20,518 bases of DNA from a virus (taxonomy: Duplodnaviria > Heunggongvirae > Uroviricota > Caudoviricetes), in IMG/VR virus record IMGVR_UViG_2740892214_000001, one strand, 5' to 3'. Below the pieces are notes generated by a model. That model was not told the origin of the DNA, made no database searches, and saw only the letters and a list, made by a program, of their open reading frames with translations. Below, in pieces: positions 6,401 through 20,461 of this stretch (the stretch's first letter is position 1; every line of letters starts with the position of its first letter). The position numbers and the translations under genes are program-made.

Positions 6401-6499
6401 GGCTGCACCATTCAGAAGGTTTTTGATACGGGGAATTTCATTTTTAAACTCTGCCGCATCAATCCCCAAATCAATGACCAGGTTGGCTATCTGGTCCAT
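3425..6499 (-). CDS. H: Tail length tape measure protein (about 1024 aa)
   Basis: Start trimmed to ATG 6497..6499 (MDQIANLVIDLGIDAAEF, aligns with lambda H N-terminus) with GGAGG 7 nt upstream. C-terminus NNDGTNGQIGPAALKVVYD matches the lambda gpH C-terminus; long Q/A/E/R-rich presumably helical central region. Confidence 0.9.
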   Translation of the reverse strand: MDQIANLVIDLGIDAAEFKNEIPRIKNLLNGAASDAERSSARMQRFMERQTQAARQTMQAASSAATAASVHAQTVEKSAQAHERMAREVEQTRQRMEALSQKMREEQAQAMALAEAQDKAAAAFYRQIDSVKQASAGLQELQRIQQQIRQARNSGGIGQQDYLALISEVTAKTRVLTQAEAEATRQKVAFIRQLKEQATRQNLSSSELLRARAAQLGVSSAAEVYIRKMERAGKATHSLGLKSAAARQEIGVLIGELARGNLGALRGSGITLANRAGWIDTLMSPKGMMLGGVIGGITAAVYGLGKAWYDGQKEGEEFNRQLSLTGHYAGVTAGQLWTLSRAISGNGITQHAAAGALAQVVGSGAFRGNDIGMVARAAAQMERSVGQSISDTINQFKRLKDDPVNAAKALDNELHFLTATQLEQIRVLGEQGRSSDAARIAMFALAEETGRRTADIDNNLNALGSTLQTLSDWWKQFWDAAMNIGREDSLDAQIATLQEKVSRAKRLPWTASSSQVEYDQQRLNELQEKKRQKDLQDAKEQAERNYQEQQKRRNAENAALNRMNETEAARHQREIARINAMQYADQAVRDAAIQRENERYEKALASGKKKTRETRNDEATRLLLQYSQQQAQVEGQIAAARQSAGIATDRMTEAHKQLLALQQRISDLDGKKLTADEKSVLARKDELIQALTLLDVKQQELQKQTALNDLKKKTIQLTSQLAEEERAQRQQHDLDIATVGMGDQQRQRYQVQLSLRQKYQQQLEQLRRDSEQKGTYNTDDYRKAEQALTESLNRQLNENRRYWQQLEIAQGNWKNGAMRAFQNFTADADNAAGTAEQMLTAAFNSAGNALATFCTTGKLNFKSFTASLLSDLAKIMAQMSMMQAVKGIGSAFGWGSAATASVTPNADGGVYQSADLSRYSGTVVNRPTFFAFAKGAGVMGEAGPEAILPLRRGADGKLGVVADIGGSGMAMFAPQYNIEINNDGTNGQIGPAALKVVYDLGKKAAADFMQQQARDGGRLSGAYR

Positions 6500-7195
6500 A
6501 ACGCACACCTCCGGAAATACCTTCCCCAAGATGCATCAGTTCTTCGTCCGTTCGCTCCGGTATCCCGTTCTCTTCCGGTAAAAGGCTGAAATCAGCCACC
6601 GCAGCATCACTGCTGCCGGACACCATTCTCACGATCAATGCCTTCAGCGAGGCAAACTGCGCATCCATCCACACATCACTGAAGCTCTGCATCCGGAAAT
6701 AATCGCCCCACTCACCAAGCTCAGTGGCCGACATTTCCGACAGCATCCGCCGCCAGTCTGCCCGCCGGAACTCCCGGGCAAGCCGCATGACAAACTGCAT
6801 TTCCCGCGTCAGGACTTTTCCGGCGTCAGCACCTCATGCTCCAAATCCCCGGCATTCTCAATGGCTCCCATACCGCTCAGCGACAGAACCATCTCCGCCC
6901 CCGCTCCCAGGGCATCATACGACCATGTTGTAATAACGGATGCGCAAAGCGTCTCAACATCCTGAGACTGTTCCGCATTCCACAGTGAGCGGGAAACTAG
7001 CCAGGCATTGATATCCATCCCCATCCGCAGAAAAGCAATCTGTCGTTCAGCCTCCGGCAGTTCTCCCTCTTCGGCATCAAACTTTGCCGTTCGCTGCTGA
7101 ACAAACGCCAGATATTCAATTCTCTGCAGCCCGGACAGCTCACTGAGCACCACGGACTGCTTTTCATAATTAAACGTGCCCTGTTTCAGAAACAT
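6471..7195 (-). CDS. T: Tail assembly chaperone GT fusion made by programmed -1 ribosomal frameshift near the end of G (T segment 6471..about 6818)
   Basis: ORF 6471..6800 (REFRRADWRRMLSEMSATELGEWG...GISGGVRYG) matches lambda gpT and lies in the -1 frame relative to G. The T frame is open only from 6833 downward and G stops at 6809, so the shift must occur in that interval; the only slippery candidate is GGAAAAG at 6815..6821. Confidence 0.6.
6809..7195 (-). CDS. G: Tail assembly chaperone G
   Basis: MFLKQGTFNYEKQSVVLSELSGLQRIEYLA resembles lambda gpG (MFLK...LSELSALQRIEHLA). Start at second ATG of an ATGATG pair (alternative 7198); GGTGGAG SD just upstream. Track ORF N-terminal extension overlaps the upstream hairpin and is rejected. 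Confidence 0.85.
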   Translation of the reverse strand: MFLKQGTFNYEKQSVVLSELSGLQRIEYLAFVQQRTAKFDAEEGELPEAERQIAFLRMGMDINAWLVSRSLWNAEQSQDVETLCASVITTWSYDALGAGAEMVLSLSGMGAIENAGDLEHEVLTPEKS

Positions 7196-7211
7196 CATGT
7201 TCTCCACCTGC

Positions 7212-7235
7212 AAAAAAGCCCCGGATAATCGGGGC
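7212..7235 (-). terminator. Intrinsic terminator-like hairpin between V and G (minus strand)
   Basis: Minus strand reads GCCCCG-AUUAUC-CGGGGC followed by UUUUUUG, 6-bp GC stem; lies between V stop (7256) and the G SD/ATG. Confidence 0.5.
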
Positions 7236-7255
7236 AAATGATGAGTATCGTCCTG

Positions 7256-8997: not shown

Positions 8998-9273
8998 TTA
9001 CTCAATAAAGATCATTGGCTTACCGTTAAAGCGTTCATGCCGTGTGACCGTCCATTGTTGTCCGTCATAAACAACGCGATCCCCGCGCCGTGGGCGGTAT
9101 CCCGAAGAAAACACCACCAGAGAGACCGCAGGTCCGGACAGAGCATTCAGCTCTGCCAGTGTTTCTCCCGGGATCACGGTCATATCGACATCATTAATCG
9201 AGGCTGTCTTTCCCATCTTTCTGACCGTGATAGCATCCATACGCGCTGCCAGCCGGGAAAAGGGATCAGACAT
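8998..9273 (-). CDS. Small head-tail joining / head completion protein (gpFII-like), function inferred
   Basis: 91-aa ORF immediately upstream of Z; C-terminal RRGDRVVYDGQQWTV resembles the RRGDTLTIGEENFWV segment of lambda gpFII; position matches FII. Confidence 0.5.
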   Translation of the reverse strand: MSDPFSRLAARMDAITVRKMGKTASINDVDMTVIPGETLAELNALSGPAVSLVVFSSGYRPRRGDRVVYDGQQWTVTRHERFNGKPMIFIE

Positions 9274-9589
9274 TGAGTTTTACCGGCACTTCTTCTGCAC
9301 TGGTTCCGGCATCTGCCCAGACAACCCCGACCAGCGGATCAGAGCCGCTGTTAGTCAGCTGAACTTTTCCGGACTTCAGATAAACCTTCTTACCCGTTTT
9401 CATGTCATCCGTTTTCAGCTTAGGCAGCATAAACACACCTTCGGTCATACCGTCGCCTGTTTCACCTTGTGGAATATCGGTCAGCGCCACCGCAAAAACA
9501 TCACCCACCTGCACCAGATCTCCGCTGCTGATGGCTGCACTGGCAACAATCGCCACCGTTTTTCCTTCTTCTACAAAATTCTTTGCCAT
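9266..9589 (-). CDS. Small head-associated protein of unknown function (possible DUF2190-like head decoration/completion protein)
   Basis: Start trimmed to ATG 9587..9589 (MAKNFVEEGKT) with GGAG 6 nt upstream; 107 aa, Gly/Val-rich; lies between the major capsid gene and the FII-like gene. Family assignment is from memory and unverified. Confidence 0.45.
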   Translation of the reverse strand: MAKNFVEEGKTVAIVASAAISSGDLVQVGDVFAVALTDIPQGETGDGMTEGVFMLPKLKTDDMKTGKKVYLKSGKVQLTNSGSDPLVGVVWADAGTSAEEVPVKLNV

Positions 9590-9632
9590 AACTGTCTCCA
9601 CACAGCCCCGTTCAGGGGCTGATTTCAGGTAC

Positions 9633-9651
9633 AAAAAAAGCCCTTACGGGC
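9633..9651 (-). terminator. Intrinsic terminator immediately downstream of the major capsid gene (minus strand)
   Basis: Minus strand reads GCCC-GUAA-GGGC (GNRA tetraloop hairpin) followed by UUUUUUUGU, about 25 nt after the capsid gene stop. A second hairpin (CAGCCCC-UGAAC-GGGGCUG, 9603..9621) follows just before the next SD. Confidence 0.55.
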
Positions 9652-9675
9652 CATCAGAGTTGTTGTCTGCGATGT

Positions 9676-11634
9676 TTACGCCGTACATTTCACCAGACCG
9701 CGGTGATCAACTGGCGCGACACCGGCGTCAATACGCACTTTCGTTGTCACGCCATCCACACTGAAGCCCTCCATCTGATCAATATATGGCGTATCCACAC
9801 CGTTGAGATAAGCCACTTCAATCGTATCGGAGCCTTTTGACGCAGCCAGGTAGAAGGTGGTCTGGCTGTTATCATCAAGACGAGGCTCTGCAATAACGGT
9901 CGCAAAATCTTTCACCGGGTTAATAATACCGGCGTTAATGTCAGCCCCCTTGACACTTGAGGAGCGAATGACCTGGTTAGCAACAGACTCCATCGCCGTC
10001 GGTACCAGTACGAACGCAGGACGAATATTCAGATGACGCTCCCCCTCTTTCTGAACACGCATCAACTGGCGGGCTTTATCCAGCGATGCCACGTCCATTG
10101 CAGCGTCCTCCAGTACGTTTGCATGTTTCGCTTTATCGAACAGACTTACATTATCTGTGGAGATTTTCGGGTTAGACGTCAGAATGGCATAAACCAGATC
10201 GGCAATAGTGGATTTCGCCGCACGGCCCAGCTTCATCGGGACATCGGTCAGCATATTCAGATCATCATTGATAATGGCCTGACGGGTGATACTGAACAGC
10301 TCGCCATAGGTCGCCAGTGCAATAGTGGCCTGTTTATCTCCGGTGGTGACGTATTTATATTCCGCCCCTTCACGCACCTGACGCAGAGCACTGAAGCCCC
10401 CCATACCCACGCGATGGGCAATTTTAAAATCAGACAACTGACCTTTCCGCGTCCACTGTTCATAGGTTTCAGGGGCATCCTCCCAGCCCTGCAGAATGGC
10501 TTTGTTCGCAACATCCAGCAGAATATTACCGAAGTCAGACGTACTGTGTGTGAACGCCGCACCGACCATCTGCATCGGGTTATAACCGGAAACCCCAATA
10601 CCCCGTTCAGTCAGTGACATACGGGCATATTCACGCAGGGTCATCCCGTTGTAGACATTATCACGTTCGGTTTTTTCAAATCCGGCACGCGCCATCAGCG
10701 CCTGGCGGATCCCGTCCCCCACAAAATTACCGTTACCGGCATAAATATGAGCCGGGGTATTTTTATTGGATGGCGTGGACTCGCGCCCCATCTCGTTCAA
10801 CAGCTTTTCGCGGGCCTGCTCCAGCGAACATTCAGGATCGGCAAGACACTGAGCCTGCAGCGTCTGATAACGCCCGCCAAACATGGCAAACAGATCATTA
10901 ATACCGTTTACACGCGCTTTTTGCTCTGCCAGTACCTGCGCACGGATACTGTTTTCATCCACCACGGGTGCTGCTGCCTGCACTGGCGTCCGGGAGGCTG
11001 CAGGTTCATTATCCTGTACGCGTGGAGCACTGTTGCGTGGCGGAGTAATCATGTTTCGAATGGATTCCGGCATCTTTTTAAATTCCTCTGTACGTTTTGA
11101 CTGAATACATGCCATTGCCTTAACGGCTGGCGTCACCTGATCAGCAAATCCATGTGCCAGACATTCGGCACCGGACATCCAGGTCTCATCCGCCAGCATG
11201 GCAGCAATTTCATCGGTGGTTTTCCCGGTTTTCTGTGCATAAGCGGGTAACAGAACCGCCTCAACCTTATCGAGCAGGTCGGCATAGGTGCGCATGTCCT
11301 CCGCATCACCGCCCGTAAAGCCAAATGGTTTATGAATCATCATGAAGGTGTTTTCCGGCATAATGACCGGTTTTCCCACCATCGCAATGACCGACGCCAT
11401 TGACGCCGCCACACCGTCGACATAAACGGTAATGGACGCACCATGTGTTTTCAGCGCATTAAAAATGGCGATGCCTTCAAAGACATCGCCACCCGGTGAA
11501 TTGATATGGAGATTAATGTGGGTGATATCGCCCAGTGCATTCAGATCACTGATAAACTGCTTCGCTGTAACACCCCAGAAACCAATCTCGTCATAAATAT
11601 AAATATCCGCGTCACTCTGGTGACCAGCCTGCAT
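9676..11634 (-). CDS. Fused prohead protease (ClpP/S14-like) - linker/scaffold - HK97-fold major capsid protein (about 652 aa)
   Basis: Start trimmed to ATG 11632..11634 (MQAGHQSDADIYIYDEIGFWG), the first ATG after the portal stop. N-terminal domain has ClpP-like motifs (IYIYDEIG, INSPGGDV, MIHKP); a Pro/Ala/Gln-rich linker follows; the C-terminal ~330 aa resemble HK97-type major capsid proteins. Confidence 0.8.
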   Translation of the reverse strand: MQAGHQSDADIYIYDEIGFWGVTAKQFISDLNALGDITHINLHINSPGGDVFEGIAIFNALKTHGASITVYVDGVAASMASVIAMVGKPVIMPENTFMMIHKPFGFTGGDAEDMRTYADLLDKVEAVLLPAYAQKTGKTTDEIAAMLADETWMSGAECLAHGFADQVTPAVKAMACIQSKRTEEFKKMPESIRNMITPPRNSAPRVQDNEPAASRTPVQAAAPVVDENSIRAQVLAEQKARVNGINDLFAMFGGRYQTLQAQCLADPECSLEQAREKLLNEMGRESTPSNKNTPAHIYAGNGNFVGDGIRQALMARAGFEKTERDNVYNGMTLREYARMSLTERGIGVSGYNPMQMVGAAFTHSTSDFGNILLDVANKAILQGWEDAPETYEQWTRKGQLSDFKIAHRVGMGGFSALRQVREGAEYKYVTTGDKQATIALATYGELFSITRQAIINDDLNMLTDVPMKLGRAAKSTIADLVYAILTSNPKISTDNVSLFDKAKHANVLEDAAMDVASLDKARQLMRVQKEGERHLNIRPAFVLVPTAMESVANQVIRSSSVKGADINAGIINPVKDFATVIAEPRLDDNSQTTFYLAASKGSDTIEVAYLNGVDTPYIDQMEGFSVDGVTTKVRIDAGVAPVDHRGLVKCTA

Positions 11635-11647
11635 CCTGAACCAGGAA

Positions 11648-13156
11648 TTATTCTTCGGACTGGTCGTCGGTGTGCTGCGGCTCCTGTCGTTTCGTTGCGG
11701 CACTGCTGCCTCCTTTATCACTGGCCGGATCGGTATCAAATACCAGATCCAGCTTGCGGTTTTCATCAATTTCGGCCTTGCGCCGACGTTTGACATCATC
11801 CGGATTACGACCACCTGCACGTACCCAGTCTGATTCTGTCGCCGCTCCACCACGAATCTGGATTTTCCAGGCCTCAGCCTCCTTAACAGGGTCAATCCAC
11901 GGCATCACCGGTCCGGAATACACCGCGGTATACAGTGAAGAACGGTCAAGATCGCGGGGTAGCCTGATAACACCGGATGCCACAGCCTGTTTCAGCCAGG
12001 CACGGTACATCGGGCGGGTGACGGCACCAATAAACCAGTCCTGCAGGATCAGGTAGCCATCAGTGGATTCAACCAGCTCCTGACGCTGGGCGCTGTAAGT
12101 GCCGTTATAGTTGCGCGCTGTACTGGAAAAACTCAGACGACTGCCAGCCGCCACTGCACGCAACTGACCATTACGAAAAGTTTCAAGATTAGGATTGGGG
12201 CGATCCGACTTCACCATTCCGATTTCTTCGCCGGGTTTCAGATCGTCGTAAATAATGCCTGGCTGAATGGTAAGCTCGCGTTCCTTATCCTTGCTGCCAT
12301 TACCATCCGGTTCATAGCTCTGCCCGTCGCCTTTGCGGATGTACATCCCCAGAGCAGCGGCGATCCTTGCTGCAGTCAGCTCATAATCTTCATAATCTTT
12401 CAGGGCACTGAGGCGGATCAGCACACCGGACAACAAAGACGTCCCGCGCATCTGGTGCAGACGGCGAACAAATTTAAGATGCAGCATTCGCTCTGCATCC
12501 ACTTCTTTGGTTTCCATCTGCCGTCCGGATACGGGACGGCTTTTATACACCAGATATTTTTCGGGACGCCCCCAGTCATCAACAAACACGCCCTGATTCA
12601 GCCTGTTGCTCTCATCACTGGTCATGGGAATAAAGTCTGGCTCGAGCGCCTCCAGCCAGAAATGAACACCGGCAGAAGGCGTCAGGCTGTTTATGCGCCC
12701 GGAAACCATCTGGGCAAACACCTCACCATCGCGCAGCCAGGTACGCAGCATCAGACGTTCCAGCATCGGACGGGTAAACTGCCCGGTGACTTCCGGGCTG
12801 ACAGACCATTCACTCCATCGGGTGCGAATCTCCGCTGCCAGATCACGGGCAATGGCCCCATTGCGTAATACCGGATGTGGCTCGACAATAATCCCGTTTT
12901 TCCCCACCACCCGTTCTTCCAGCTTGTCAAATACACCAATAACCAGATCGTGGTTGTTATCAAGGTAACGGGCCTGCTCACGTAACGACACGGCCCCGTA
13001 CTGGCTTAGCTGGTCGGCAGTTCGGTTCTCCCGTCGGGCTTTGTGTGTCCGCGTCGTTTTTACGGCTTCATAAGCCTGGATCACCGCACGGGAACGCAGC
13101 CTTGCCGCTTTCCATCTAGGTGAAAAAACGCCAATCACATCATCAAGAATTGCCAT
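11648..13156 (-). CDS. Portal protein
   Basis: About 502 aa; start trimmed to ATG 13154..13156 (MAILDDVIGVF), which overlaps the upstream gene stop by one base. Sits between terminase/W and the capsid gene; acidic C-terminus. Family (lambda gpB-like) is inferred, not verified. Confidence 0.8.
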   Translation of the reverse strand: MAILDDVIGVFSPRWKAARLRSRAVIQAYEAVKTTRTHKARRENRTADQLSQYGAVSLREQARYLDNNHDLVIGVFDKLEERVVGKNGIIVEPHPVLRNGAIARDLAAEIRTRWSEWSVSPEVTGQFTRPMLERLMLRTWLRDGEVFAQMVSGRINSLTPSAGVHFWLEALEPDFIPMTSDESNRLNQGVFVDDWGRPEKYLVYKSRPVSGRQMETKEVDAERMLHLKFVRRLHQMRGTSLLSGVLIRLSALKDYEDYELTAARIAAALGMYIRKGDGQSYEPDGNGSKDKERELTIQPGIIYDDLKPGEEIGMVKSDRPNPNLETFRNGQLRAVAAGSRLSFSSTARNYNGTYSAQRQELVESTDGYLILQDWFIGAVTRPMYRAWLKQAVASGVIRLPRDLDRSSLYTAVYSGPVMPWIDPVKEAEAWKIQIRGGAATESDWVRAGGRNPDDVKRRRKAEIDENRKLDLVFDTDPASDKGGSSAATKRQEPQHTDDQSEE

Positions 13157-16414: not shown

Positions 16415-16798
16415 TCAGTAACGACCGCGCCTTCCGGTAATTTCATACCGGCAAATACCGGACAGCCCGGGGATCGTTATCTGCAGCTGGTTAGCCAGGG
16501 AGTTAATCTCAGCGACCAACACTGGCTTCGTATAGCGCCATGCCGCCAGCCCTTGTCCACAGAAGCTCGCCATATCTTTTTTCTGATCAAACTCATGACA
16601 CTTCATATTGAGCTGCGCACTTAAGCTGTTGCGATGCTGAAGTTCTCCGGTGAAGTAGTCATCCAGGACTTTATAGGCTGCATATTTAAATCCGGGGTTT
16701 AGCCATGCTGCATAATCATAAGCAACAAACTTCCCGCCATATGTTCCACCGTGTACACCGCGCTCAGTAAAAACCACAGATTCGTGTTTTTTCTCCAT
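16415..16798 (-). CDS. Hypothetical protein (127 aa) between Rz and cos; possible KilA-N-like fragment
   Basis: ORF begins directly after the Rz TAG stop in the same frame, with no SD. Segment GTYGGKFVAYDYAAWLNPGF loosely resembles the conserved KilA-N motif (GTWVHP.LA..FA.WLSPEF) as recalled. Status as a functional gene is uncertain. Confidence 0.4.
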   Translation of the reverse strand: MEKKHESVVFTERGVHGGTYGGKFVAYDYAAWLNPGFKYAAYKVLDDYFTGELQHRNSLSAQLNMKCHEFDQKKDMASFCGQGLAAWRYTKPVLVAEINSLANQLQITIPGLSGICRYEITGRRGRY

Positions 16799-18154: not shown

Positions 18155-19207
18155 TTATTTCCCCACCAGTTCACTTACCTCTTTCACCGTCTGATTAAAC
18201 CGCTCTGACTCAAGTTCAACACCTAACGCCCGACGCCCCAGCGCCATTGCTGCTTTTATTGTGGAACCGGATCCCATAAAGAAATCAGCAACCAGATCAC
18301 CAGGGCGACTACTGGCATTGATTATTTGCCGGAGCATATCCGCCGGTTTCTCGCACGGATGTTTACCCGGGTAGAACTGAACGGGTTTATGCGTCCAGAC
18401 ATCGGTATAAGGCACGGAGACTGATACGGAGAAATAGCGCCGGAGAGATTTAAACTCATCCAGCAATTCAGAATATTTGCGATTCAGTGAATCATAAGAT
18501 GCCACCAGCTGGTGGTGTGGTTGTTCCAGTTGTTGTTCCTGAAACTTCTCTGCCGCTATACGGGAAAACAGTGCCTGTAACTTCCGATAGTCAGCCTCAT
18601 TCGGCAACTGCCACTGACTGGCACCAAACCAGTGGGAAACCATATTTTTCTTACCTGTGGCTTCGGCAATTTGTTTTGCCGTTATACCCAGTTCGGCACG
18701 AGCATCCCTGAAATACGATATCAGCGGTGCCATTATGTGCTGTTTGAGTTCCCTTTCTTTTGCTGCATAGCCGTCACTTTTGCCGCGATATGGCCCCTGG
18801 TAATGTTCAGCAAACAGAACGCGCTCTGTGGCAGGAAAATATGCGCGCAGACTTTCTTTATTACACCCATTCCAACGTCCGGACGGCTTCGCCCAGATGA
18901 TATGGTTAAGCACGTTGAAACGTTCACGCATCATGATCTCAATATCAGATGCCAGGCGATGCCCACAGAACAGATAAAGGCTTCCGGCAGGTTTTAACAC
19001 CCGCCAGAACTGGGCCAGACAGTGGTCCAGCCACTTAAGGTAATCTTCGTCCCCTTTCCACTGATTGTCCCAACCGTTGGGTTTCACCTTGAAGTACGGC
19101 GGATCGGTAACAATCAGGTCAATGGAATCATCAGGCAGGGACTGAATAAAATGCAGGCAATCAGCGTTGATTAAATCAACACTGTTTATTTTTACAGTAT
19201 TTTTCAT
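18155..19207 (-). CDS. DNA amino-methyltransferase, beta-class (N6-adenine or N4-cytosine), orphan
   Basis: 350 aa; DPPY motif (IVTDPPYF) near the N-terminus and AdoMet-binding FxGxG (DFFMGSGST) near the C-terminus; no adjacent endonuclease-like ORF; weak SD. Confidence 0.85.
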   Translation of the reverse strand: MKNTVKINSVDLINADCLHFIQSLPDDSIDLIVTDPPYFKVKPNGWDNQWKGDEDYLKWLDHCLAQFWRVLKPAGSLYLFCGHRLASDIEIMMRERFNVLNHIIWAKPSGRWNGCNKESLRAYFPATERVLFAEHYQGPYRGKSDGYAAKERELKQHIMAPLISYFRDARAELGITAKQIAEATGKKNMVSHWFGASQWQLPNEADYRKLQALFSRIAAEKFQEQQLEQPHHQLVASYDSLNRKYSELLDEFKSLRRYFSVSVSVPYTDVWTHKPVQFYPGKHPCEKPADMLRQIINASSRPGDLVADFFMGSGSTIKAAMALGRRALGVELESERFNQTVKEVSELVGK

Positions 19208-19837: not shown

Positions 19838-20461
19838 TCAATTATCTTCCAGGCCGGATGCTATCAACGAAAGCCTCTCAAAAAACGCTGTAGCAGCCTT
19901 GTCCAAAGTTGAATAAGTACTGTATTCTCCGTGTTCGGGACCAACCACTACCCATGGTCGTCTTTTTGGGATTCGGGATTTCTCAGAAATCACTGTTCCA
20001 GATATACCAATATCAATTGTTACACCTGTTATTATTTTCTCTTCATCTCTTTCCCTGAACTCAATTGCCATAAATGCCGTTTTTTTTCGTTTCCCGTTTT
20101 TAAAAAAATCAAATAAAGCAAAGCGATGCTCATTAAAATCAACACCCCATCGTCCTTCAGGATAAAGGGCATGAAAGTTGTCATTTACGCTCTGCATCGT
20201 CTCATAAGCTTTAACTTCTAAATCTCCATAGTGCATAGATACCGCGCAGGAGTTACTGGGTAACTGTATTTTCCCAAGATTGAAAACCTTTACTGCTCCA
20301 GAACTATGGCATCTTGCCCGCAACTTATCCCCATTTATACTAATCGGAGAAATATTCCTTAATGTTCCGGGCTGGCTCCCTCCTAAGTAAACGACTGTTA
20401 AAGATTGCTTATTTTCAATTGCATCAACTAATACATGCTCTACACTGAGAGATCCCCTCAT
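19838..20461 (-). CDS. Hypothetical protein (207 aa), orphan cargo ORF in a low-GC island
   Basis: Uninterrupted 207-codon ORF with GGGG SD-like element 5 nt upstream of the ATG; local G+C clearly lower than the rest of the window (about 38% in a counted 60-nt sample vs roughly 60% in the tape measure gene); no recognisable motif; own downstream terminator. Confidence 0.6.
   Translation of the reverse strand: MRGSLSVEHVLVDAIENKQSLTVVYLGGSQPGTLRNISPISINGDKLRARCHSSGAVKVFNLGKIQLPSNSCAVSMHYGDLEVKAYETMQSVNDNFHALYPEGRWGVDFNEHRFALFDFFKNGKRKKTAFMAIEFRERDEEKIITGVTIDIGISGTVISEKSRIPKRRPWVVVGPEHGEYSTYSTLDKAATAFFERLSLIASGLEDN

Follow-up and report, generated by a model that had tools for sequence, protein, structure and literature searches.

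We analyzed a 20,518-nucleotide (nt) stretch of DNA from a virus of the class Caudoviricetes (IMG/VR virus record IMGVR_UViG_2740892214_000001), the whole of which we call the window, and focused on a long gene on its minus strand in which a ClpP-like prohead protease, a central domain, and an HK97-fold major capsid protein follow one another in one reading frame. That this is a tripartite capsid gene of the Gifsy-2 type is, in our estimate, close to certain. We also consider it fairly probable that the fuller statement holds, namely, that the window carries the head-shell gene of an Escherichia coli lambdoid prophage of the Gifsy-2/mEp460/cdtI type and that this gene works through two in-frame translation starts, the second of which would lie between the protease and the scaffold. 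The fusion itself is already known, with a curated family of its own (NCBIfam NF045540) and a structural characterization in Gifsy-2 that dates from 2010, and as such it changes nothing; the only new point is the conserved internal start, and it is there that the residual, modest interest of the gene lies. All features described here are on the minus strand of the window, and residues are numbered throughout as in a version of the protein of 652 amino acids (aa) counted from the ATG at 11634.

The original prediction, made from the letters of the sequence, had proposed that a single frame joins a ClpP-like prohead protease, a linker or scaffold, and an HK97-fold capsid protein, and it had suggested a domain search as a check. 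In this search, the Pfam family CLP_protease matched aa 23 to 168 (E value, 4e-36) and Phage_capsid_4 matched aa 356 to 649 (E value, 2e-54), with a weaker match to Mu-like gpT, so that the C-terminal half does fall into a capsid family. The NF045540 profile (scaf_prot_MCP1), which NCBIfam names [quoted passage not shown] spans aa 9 to 651 of 652 and scores 984 bits against a cut-off of 475, and PHROG 133 likewise matches the fusion protein over its full length. Together with a confident structure model and its fold matches, and with the precedent of Gifsy-2, these family profiles bear out the proposed order of domains.

The protease domain (11125..11610; aa 9 to 170) is a serine protease of the ClpP family (MEROPS S14-like) and retains the catalytic Ser78 (11403-11401, within GVAASMAS) and His101 (11334-11332, within MIHKP), while Glu150 (11187-11185) sits where ClpP has an Asp. 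Among 132 cluster representatives, the Ser and the His are invariant or nearly so, and the third position of the triad is occupied by Glu or Asp in 127. The match to ClpP (S14) is far better than that to SppA, and no S78-family match was listed for the fusion protein in the family profile search.

The AlphaFold2 model on which we relied was computed from an alignment of 129 representatives at 34 to 59% identity and reached a predicted local distance difference test score (pLDDT) of 90.3; a run with 25 relatives at 76 to 99% identity, an alignment too shallow for the purpose, gave a pLDDT of 34.5, and that model was discarded. The protein starts with a compact α/β domain that extends to approximately aa 170 and is followed by a short helix. 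Beyond it lies a hypervariable, proline-rich, disordered linker (10969..11031; aa 202 to 222), with a pLDDT below 50 and a column identity of 0.22, whose length varies and always stays in frame. Next comes a three-helix central domain (10780..10956; aa 227 to 285), its helices at aa 227 to 250, 257 to 265, and 271 to 285 all modeled with high pLDDT. No Pfam family matched this domain in the profile search; from the analogous delta domain of HK97 and central domain of Gifsy-2, we presume that it is a scaffolding or delta-like domain. It is connected by a flexible loop (10726..10779; aa 286 to 303) to the HK97-fold major capsid protein domain (9679..10725; aa 304 to 652; about 38 kDa), whose spine helix occupies aa 460 to 487. 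Since model confidence dips in the loop, to a pLDDT of about 58, and conservation steps up there, from about 0.5 to about 0.74 at aa 301, the maturation cut that frees the capsid protein would probably fall within these residues. In sum of its traits, the gene looks as a member of the NF045540/Gifsy-2 type should: a full-length family match, a ClpP-fold protease with its Ser and His, a central domain in the range of 100 to 200 residues between protease and capsid, an HK97-fold capsid protein in the same frame, and a location between a lambda-type portal gene and a cement gene, without a separate capsid gene.

The open reading frame runs continuously back from its TAA stop (9676-9678) and gives 652 aa when read from the ATG at 11634. 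The earlier description of a single frame without an intervening stop holds for the window, where no in-frame stop occurs from 9678 to 11895, and for the relatives, in which the frame is intact (see below). The position of the start needs revision. Comparison with related sequences makes GTG 11703 most likely the true start, rather than ATG 11634, because RefSeq begins the coding sequence there, 69 nt upstream of ATG 11634, because an SW[FY] peptide motif just upstream of that ATG is conserved as protein, and because the Met with which the earlier reading began (11632..11634; residue 1), which has no Shine-Dalgarno sequence, is often encoded as Ile or Leu, as seen in many lineages. The complete tripartite head gene, as annotated in RefSeq, spans 9676..11703 (GTG 11703-11701 to TAA 9678-9676) and encodes 675 aa with a mass of 73.6 kDa. 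The sequence AAAGGAGGcagcaGTG contains this GTG, 23 codons upstream of ATG 11634, and the Shine-Dalgarno sequence AGGAGG (11709..11714) 5 nt before it, which lies within the 3′ end of the portal gene and is conserved in Enterobacterales relatives; most relatives have a GTG or an ATG with AGGAG(G) at codons −22 to −27.

The portal gene itself (11648..13156) is of the lambda family (Pfam Phage_portal_2, E value 8e-82; PHROG 21) and equals the mEp460 portal gene in length. Its stop codon is at 11650-11648, and it shares its last 56 nt with the fusion gene, which is read in a different frame. The statement that the fusion gene starts just after the portal stop is therefore right in placing the portal gene directly upstream and probably wrong about the start, for which RefSeq and the conserved AGGAGG point to GTG 11703, inside the portal 3′ end. 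With its start inside the portal gene (11648-11703), the fusion gene may be translationally coupled to it. The weak site at ATG 11634 had also prompted the idea that little of the long form is translated, which was dropped once the conserved upstream GTG with its AGGAGG was found; the ratio of the two products cannot be read from the sequence alone.

A second start is suggested by a site between the protease and the scaffold. At codon 188, the window reads acaGAGGAAtttaaaaagATG, with a Shine-Dalgarno-like GAGGA (11084..11088) 10 nt upstream of an in-frame ATG (11071..11073; Met188, corresponding to Met211 of the 675-aa protein), from which a nested scaffold-capsid product of 465 aa and 50.7 kDa would be made. 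We compared this site across 78 genomic loci from other species, which include Enterobacterales, Pseudomonas, Shewanella, Pasteurellaceae, and others. Codon 188 is ATG in all 78 loci as well as in Gifsy-2, and AGGA, AGGAG, or AAGGA precedes it by 7 to 11 nt, the spacing being 9 or 10 nt in 75 of the 78; Gifsy-2 has GAGGAG, 9 nt, and ATG at the same place. This is the sole alignment column in which an ATG is combined with a Shine-Dalgarno 4-mer in 100% of the loci, the next best column reaching 22% and the background for the 4-mer lying at 4%. The residue pair encoded across the Shine-Dalgarno site varies (EE, ED, QE, KD, KE, ME, IE, TE, and GD). Among the 43 lineages below 85% identity, codon −5 ends in AG in 41, and every Glu, Gln, or Lys codon at this position ends in G, those of Pasteurellaceae included, with a background NAG use of 15 to 30%. 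Given this conserved combination of Shine-Dalgarno sequence and ATG at the boundary between protease and scaffold, we think that a nested, protease-less scaffold-capsid product of 51 kDa is probably made from the same frame. The “single polypeptide” of the original prediction thus holds as a description of one open reading frame, while the conserved internal start argues for a second protein that comprises the scaffold and the capsid.

In representatives below approximately 48% identity, position 188 holds Ala, Val, Ile, or Pro instead of Met, which at the protein level reads as a loss of the internal start. This reading was rejected, since the DNA of nine distant relatives (34 to 45% identity; GC content, 0.40 to 0.67) shows a displaced site: all nine have an in-frame ATG in the linker, at aa 205 to 233, preceded by AGGAGG, AGGAG, GGAGG, or GAGG. 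Shine-Dalgarno sequence and ATG here sit 15 to 45 residues beyond position 188 in the same linker, and elsewhere in these genes such combinations number 0 to 3 per gene. To judge by these sequences, the internal site has moved and has not been lost; it stays between protease and scaffold, which is the behavior of a functional start and not that of a protein motif or a relic.

This displacement, like the pattern among the closer relatives, has to be weighed against a simpler view, assumed in the original prediction, in which the gene has one product only. Every subunit would then be a full, self-cutting 74-kDa chain, each of the approximately 415 copies in a T=7 procapsid would carry its own protease, and the conserved AGGA-ATG would be no start but, for example, the mark of a translational pause at the domain boundary, or its ATG would owe its retention to a function of Met188 in the protein. 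Such a view fits the universal preservation of the fused frame, and Pro189, which is conserved even in distant relatives without Met188, indicates that the motif is partly a protein feature. Space is no obstacle to it either, as by our own rough estimate some 415 copies of an internal part of 35 to 40 kDa fit into a lambda-sized procapsid. A single product does not account, however, for the retention of the AGGA nucleotides while the encoded residues change, or for the joint reappearance of Shine-Dalgarno sequence and ATG elsewhere in the linker of distant relatives, which a fixed motif or a relic would not show; nor does any other column of the gene display such conservation of the two. We regard a single product as unlikely, without thinking it far-fetched. 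The case for two starts has its own weak points. It draws the use of the internal ATG from sequence conservation alone, and the naive probability product for the codon-choice bias at −5, 1e-16 over the 43 lineages, is overstated by shared ancestry. In addition, a very distant fused homologue from a Vibrio phage (27% identity) has only a weak AGGT before its linker ATG.

Two further alternatives concern the gene as a whole. According to one, the fusion is an artifact of assembly or sequencing or the result of a recent frameshift, and the protease and capsid genes are in truth separate, as in HK97. We found nothing in its favor, and the comparative data contradict it. At 99% identity, the gene DNA is nearly that of the phages mEp460, cdtI, Tritos, Ayreon, and phi458, and it is about 78% identical to that of long-tailed Stx2 phages; 2,125 of 5,426 complete E. 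coli genomes (about 39%) carry the gene under the name that PGAP gives to this family of fusions. A protein search returned 3,647 relatives at an E value of ≤1e-10, most of the 120 listed being full length; an exhaustive search of representatives of clusters formed at 50% identity listed well over 100 clusters that share the 640- to 740-aa architecture at 36 to 60% identity, and 74 records of isolated phages gave near-full coverage. None of the 78 loci from other species shows a break in the frame from protease to capsid, nor do Gifsy-2 and nine metagenomic relatives; overall, the frame is whole in the 87 DNA loci examined. Between Pro189 and Arg241, the linker has 24 different lengths among the loci, all of them in frame; that the frame has stayed intact despite these differences means that selection keeps the protease and capsid halves joined. 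With the same architecture found in independent complete genomes, isolated phages, 78 other species, and more than 100 clusters, with a family curated at NCBI for the fusion, and with the fusion studied experimentally in Gifsy-2, an artifact is so improbable that it can be set aside, and the caveat of the original prediction that a sequencing error might conceal two separate genes is ruled out. The other alternative takes the gene to be a decaying remnant in a defective prophage that makes no functional capsid in this host. There are copies to which this might apply: the one in VT1-Sakai carries IS629, that of PAN70 is annotated as disrupted, and in E. coli 2013C-3264, where the gene is 100% identical, two neighbors are annotated as pseudogenes with frameshifts, namely, the large terminase gene and the gene that follows the cement gene. 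The window, in contrast, is a lambdoid late region whose whole module, from the small terminase to the tail genes, is intact, and its gene is 99% identical to that of the plaque-forming phages mEp460, cdtI, phi458, and Ayreon. We consider a remnant very improbable here.

Under the two-start reading, which we prefer, the gene would work as follows. Translation from GTG 11703 would give a 73.6-kDa protease-scaffold-capsid chain, and translation from ATG 11073 would give a 50.7-kDa scaffold-capsid chain. The short chain would resemble HK97 gp5 with its delta domain, some 112 N-terminal residues being removed later, compared with 102 in HK97. Both chains are envisaged to coassemble on the portal through their capsid domains, the long one bringing its covalently tethered protease into the procapsid with no separate targeting signal, and the protease dose would be set by how often each start is used relative to the other. 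After assembly, the protease would remove itself and the scaffold segment to leave a mature shell protein of about 38 kDa. The mature shell would expand upon DNA packaging and be stabilized by the cement protein, a role that we assign after the literature on Gifsy-2. It seems somewhat more plausible than the opposite that the gene is in this sense a nested pair: the chief shell-building protein would be the HK97-like scaffold-capsid product of an internal site that selection maintains throughout the family, the long form would have the sole task of bringing in a measured amount of ClpP-type protease, and the start ratio would set the number of protease copies per procapsid. Use of the internal start would explain how the phage does without a protease on every capsid subunit, and two starts in one frame would offer a simple genetic handle on the dosage of protease in the procapsid.

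The closest characterized relative is the Gifsy-2 gene. Its protein is 70% identical over 100% of the length and has the same order of ClpP-like protease, central domain, and capsid protein in one frame, with the internal GAGGAG-ATG also present. The surroundings agree as well, with a lambda-type terminase, a W-like adaptor, and the portal upstream and with a small cement/decoration gene and lambda-like tail genes downstream. We found no difference of substance and regard the gene of the window as the E. coli orthologue. In the Gifsy-2 study, the T=7 shell was reportedly modeled using the capsid protein of HK97 together with gpD of lambda, and the mature capsid protein cut from the precursor is said to measure about 35 to 40 kDa. 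The term “tripartite capsid gene” is applied to Gifsy-2 in a passage of PMC12315714 that cites Effantin et al. 2010, and a passage of PMC8538268 citing the same work describes a trimeric decoration protein on the Gifsy-2 shell. In the papers that we searched for experiments on this very family, the work of Effantin, Figueroa-Bossi, Schoehn, Bossi, and Conway (Virology 402:355, 2010) turned up solely as a cited reference.

The comparison with HK97 yields both likenesses and differences. There, too, the scaffold forms the N terminus of an HK97-fold capsid protein and is removed in the procapsid by a phage protease, and the short product proposed here would have the layout of gp5. Unlike in HK97, where the gp4 protease belongs to family S78, has a herpesvirus-like fold, and is encoded by a separate gene, the window has a ClpP-like protease that continues without a break into the capsid protein. 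An HK97-type module, in which a gene for an S78 protease precedes a separate delta-domain capsid gene, would be divided by a stop between protease and capsid, and the window has none. Furthermore, the HK97 shell is held together by covalent cross-links, whereas the module in the window carries a cement protein. In this last respect there is a likeness to lambda: the Gifsy-2 shell has a lambda-like trimeric decoration protein, and the cement gene of the window lies at the matching position.

For the proposed pair of products, the nearest parallels are lambda C/Nu3, herpesvirus UL26/UL26.5, and HFTV1 gp17, which are likewise nested in frame, with a long form that contains the protease and a short form, made in larger amounts from an internal start, that is the scaffold. 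The I and Z genes of phage Mu are also nested protease and scaffold genes. An overview of the nested genes in lambda, herpes simplex virus 1 (HSV-1), and HFTV1 is given in bioRxiv 10.64898/2026.09.13.751334. In lambda-type nested systems, the capsid gene is separate, whereas here the nested unit runs through the capsid protein; in addition, lambda gpC is an S49 (SppA-like) protease, unlike the ClpP-like enzyme of the window. By analogy with these systems, the proposed scheme would combine the HK97 arrangement, in which the scaffold is fused to the capsid protein, with the nested principle of lambda, herpesviruses, and HFTV1. If true, it would extend the nested protease-scaffold principle of lambda and the herpesviruses through the capsid protein itself. 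Protease-capsid fusions also recur elsewhere in tailed phages, as in actinobacteriophage clusters AU, AW, EE, and DJ, where the product is called “major capsid and protease fusion protein.” These fusions and NCBIfam NF045541 (scaf_prot_MCP2), however, are different sequence families; against NF045541, the protein of the window scores 401 bits, below the cut-off of 525, and matches in the scaffold-capsid part only.

In the annotation of phage genomes, the gene appears under a variety of names. GenBank phage records call it “head-tail preconnector protein Nu3,” “terminase protein,” “Clp protease,” “scaffold protein” or “scaffolding protein,” and “major capsid protein,” and several records, that of mEp460 among them, begin the gene at the downstream ATG. 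It is a useful annotation case, as one gene bears conflicting GenBank labels and start codons. As for its carriers, some that have an intact fusion gene are defective prophages (for example, in E. coli 2013C-3264). This enterobacterial prophage gene is also found on contigs of metagenome-assembled genomes labeled Bacillota (99% identity) and Geobacteraceae (74%), most likely through misbinning or contamination.

Reading along the minus strand, the genes of the window are those for a DNA methyltransferase, holin, endolysin, an Rz-like spanin, a Rha-like regulator, the small and large terminase subunits, the W-like adaptor, the lambda-family portal, and the fusion protein, followed by a 107-aa cement protein and then by neck, tail-tube, chaperone, tape-measure, and tip genes. 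The gene annotation of the window shows no second capsid gene between the portal and the tail genes, and the fusion gene must therefore supply the shell. The cement/decoration protein gene (9266..9589; Pfam Phage_cement_2 [DUF2190], E value 9e-21; PHROG 122) directly follows the fusion gene in the window, in mEp460, in Gifsy-2, and in seven of nine distant loci.

The terminator that had been noticed after the gene was recovered by scanning and folding and is annotated as such in the record of mEp460, whose DNA is 99% identical. This intrinsic terminator (9632..9652) begins 23 nt after the stop codon and reads, from 9652 to 9632, GGCCCGTAAGGGC and then seven T in the DNA, or GGCCCGUAAGGGC and then seven U in the RNA. 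A second strong hairpin, CAGCCCCUGAACGGGGCUG, has no U-run and lies at 9603-9621, downstream of the terminator and ahead of the cement gene (ATG at 9589) with its GGAG ribosome-binding site; it may be an element of RNA stability or processing for the downstream message.

Further along the tail genes, two overlapping open reading frames at 6471-7237 (PHROG 42 and PHROG 39/Phage_tail_T) resemble the G/GT tail-chaperone pair of lambda, which is normally made by a programmed −1 frameshift. Upstream of the holin-endolysin-spanin cassette lie a gene for a 207-aa protein of unknown function (19838-20461; PHROG 8498) and that of the DNA methyltransferase (18155-19207; 350 aa). The protein with the Rha-like regulator domain (16415-16798; 127 aa) is encoded between the spanin and small terminase genes, which is an unusual location for a regulator.

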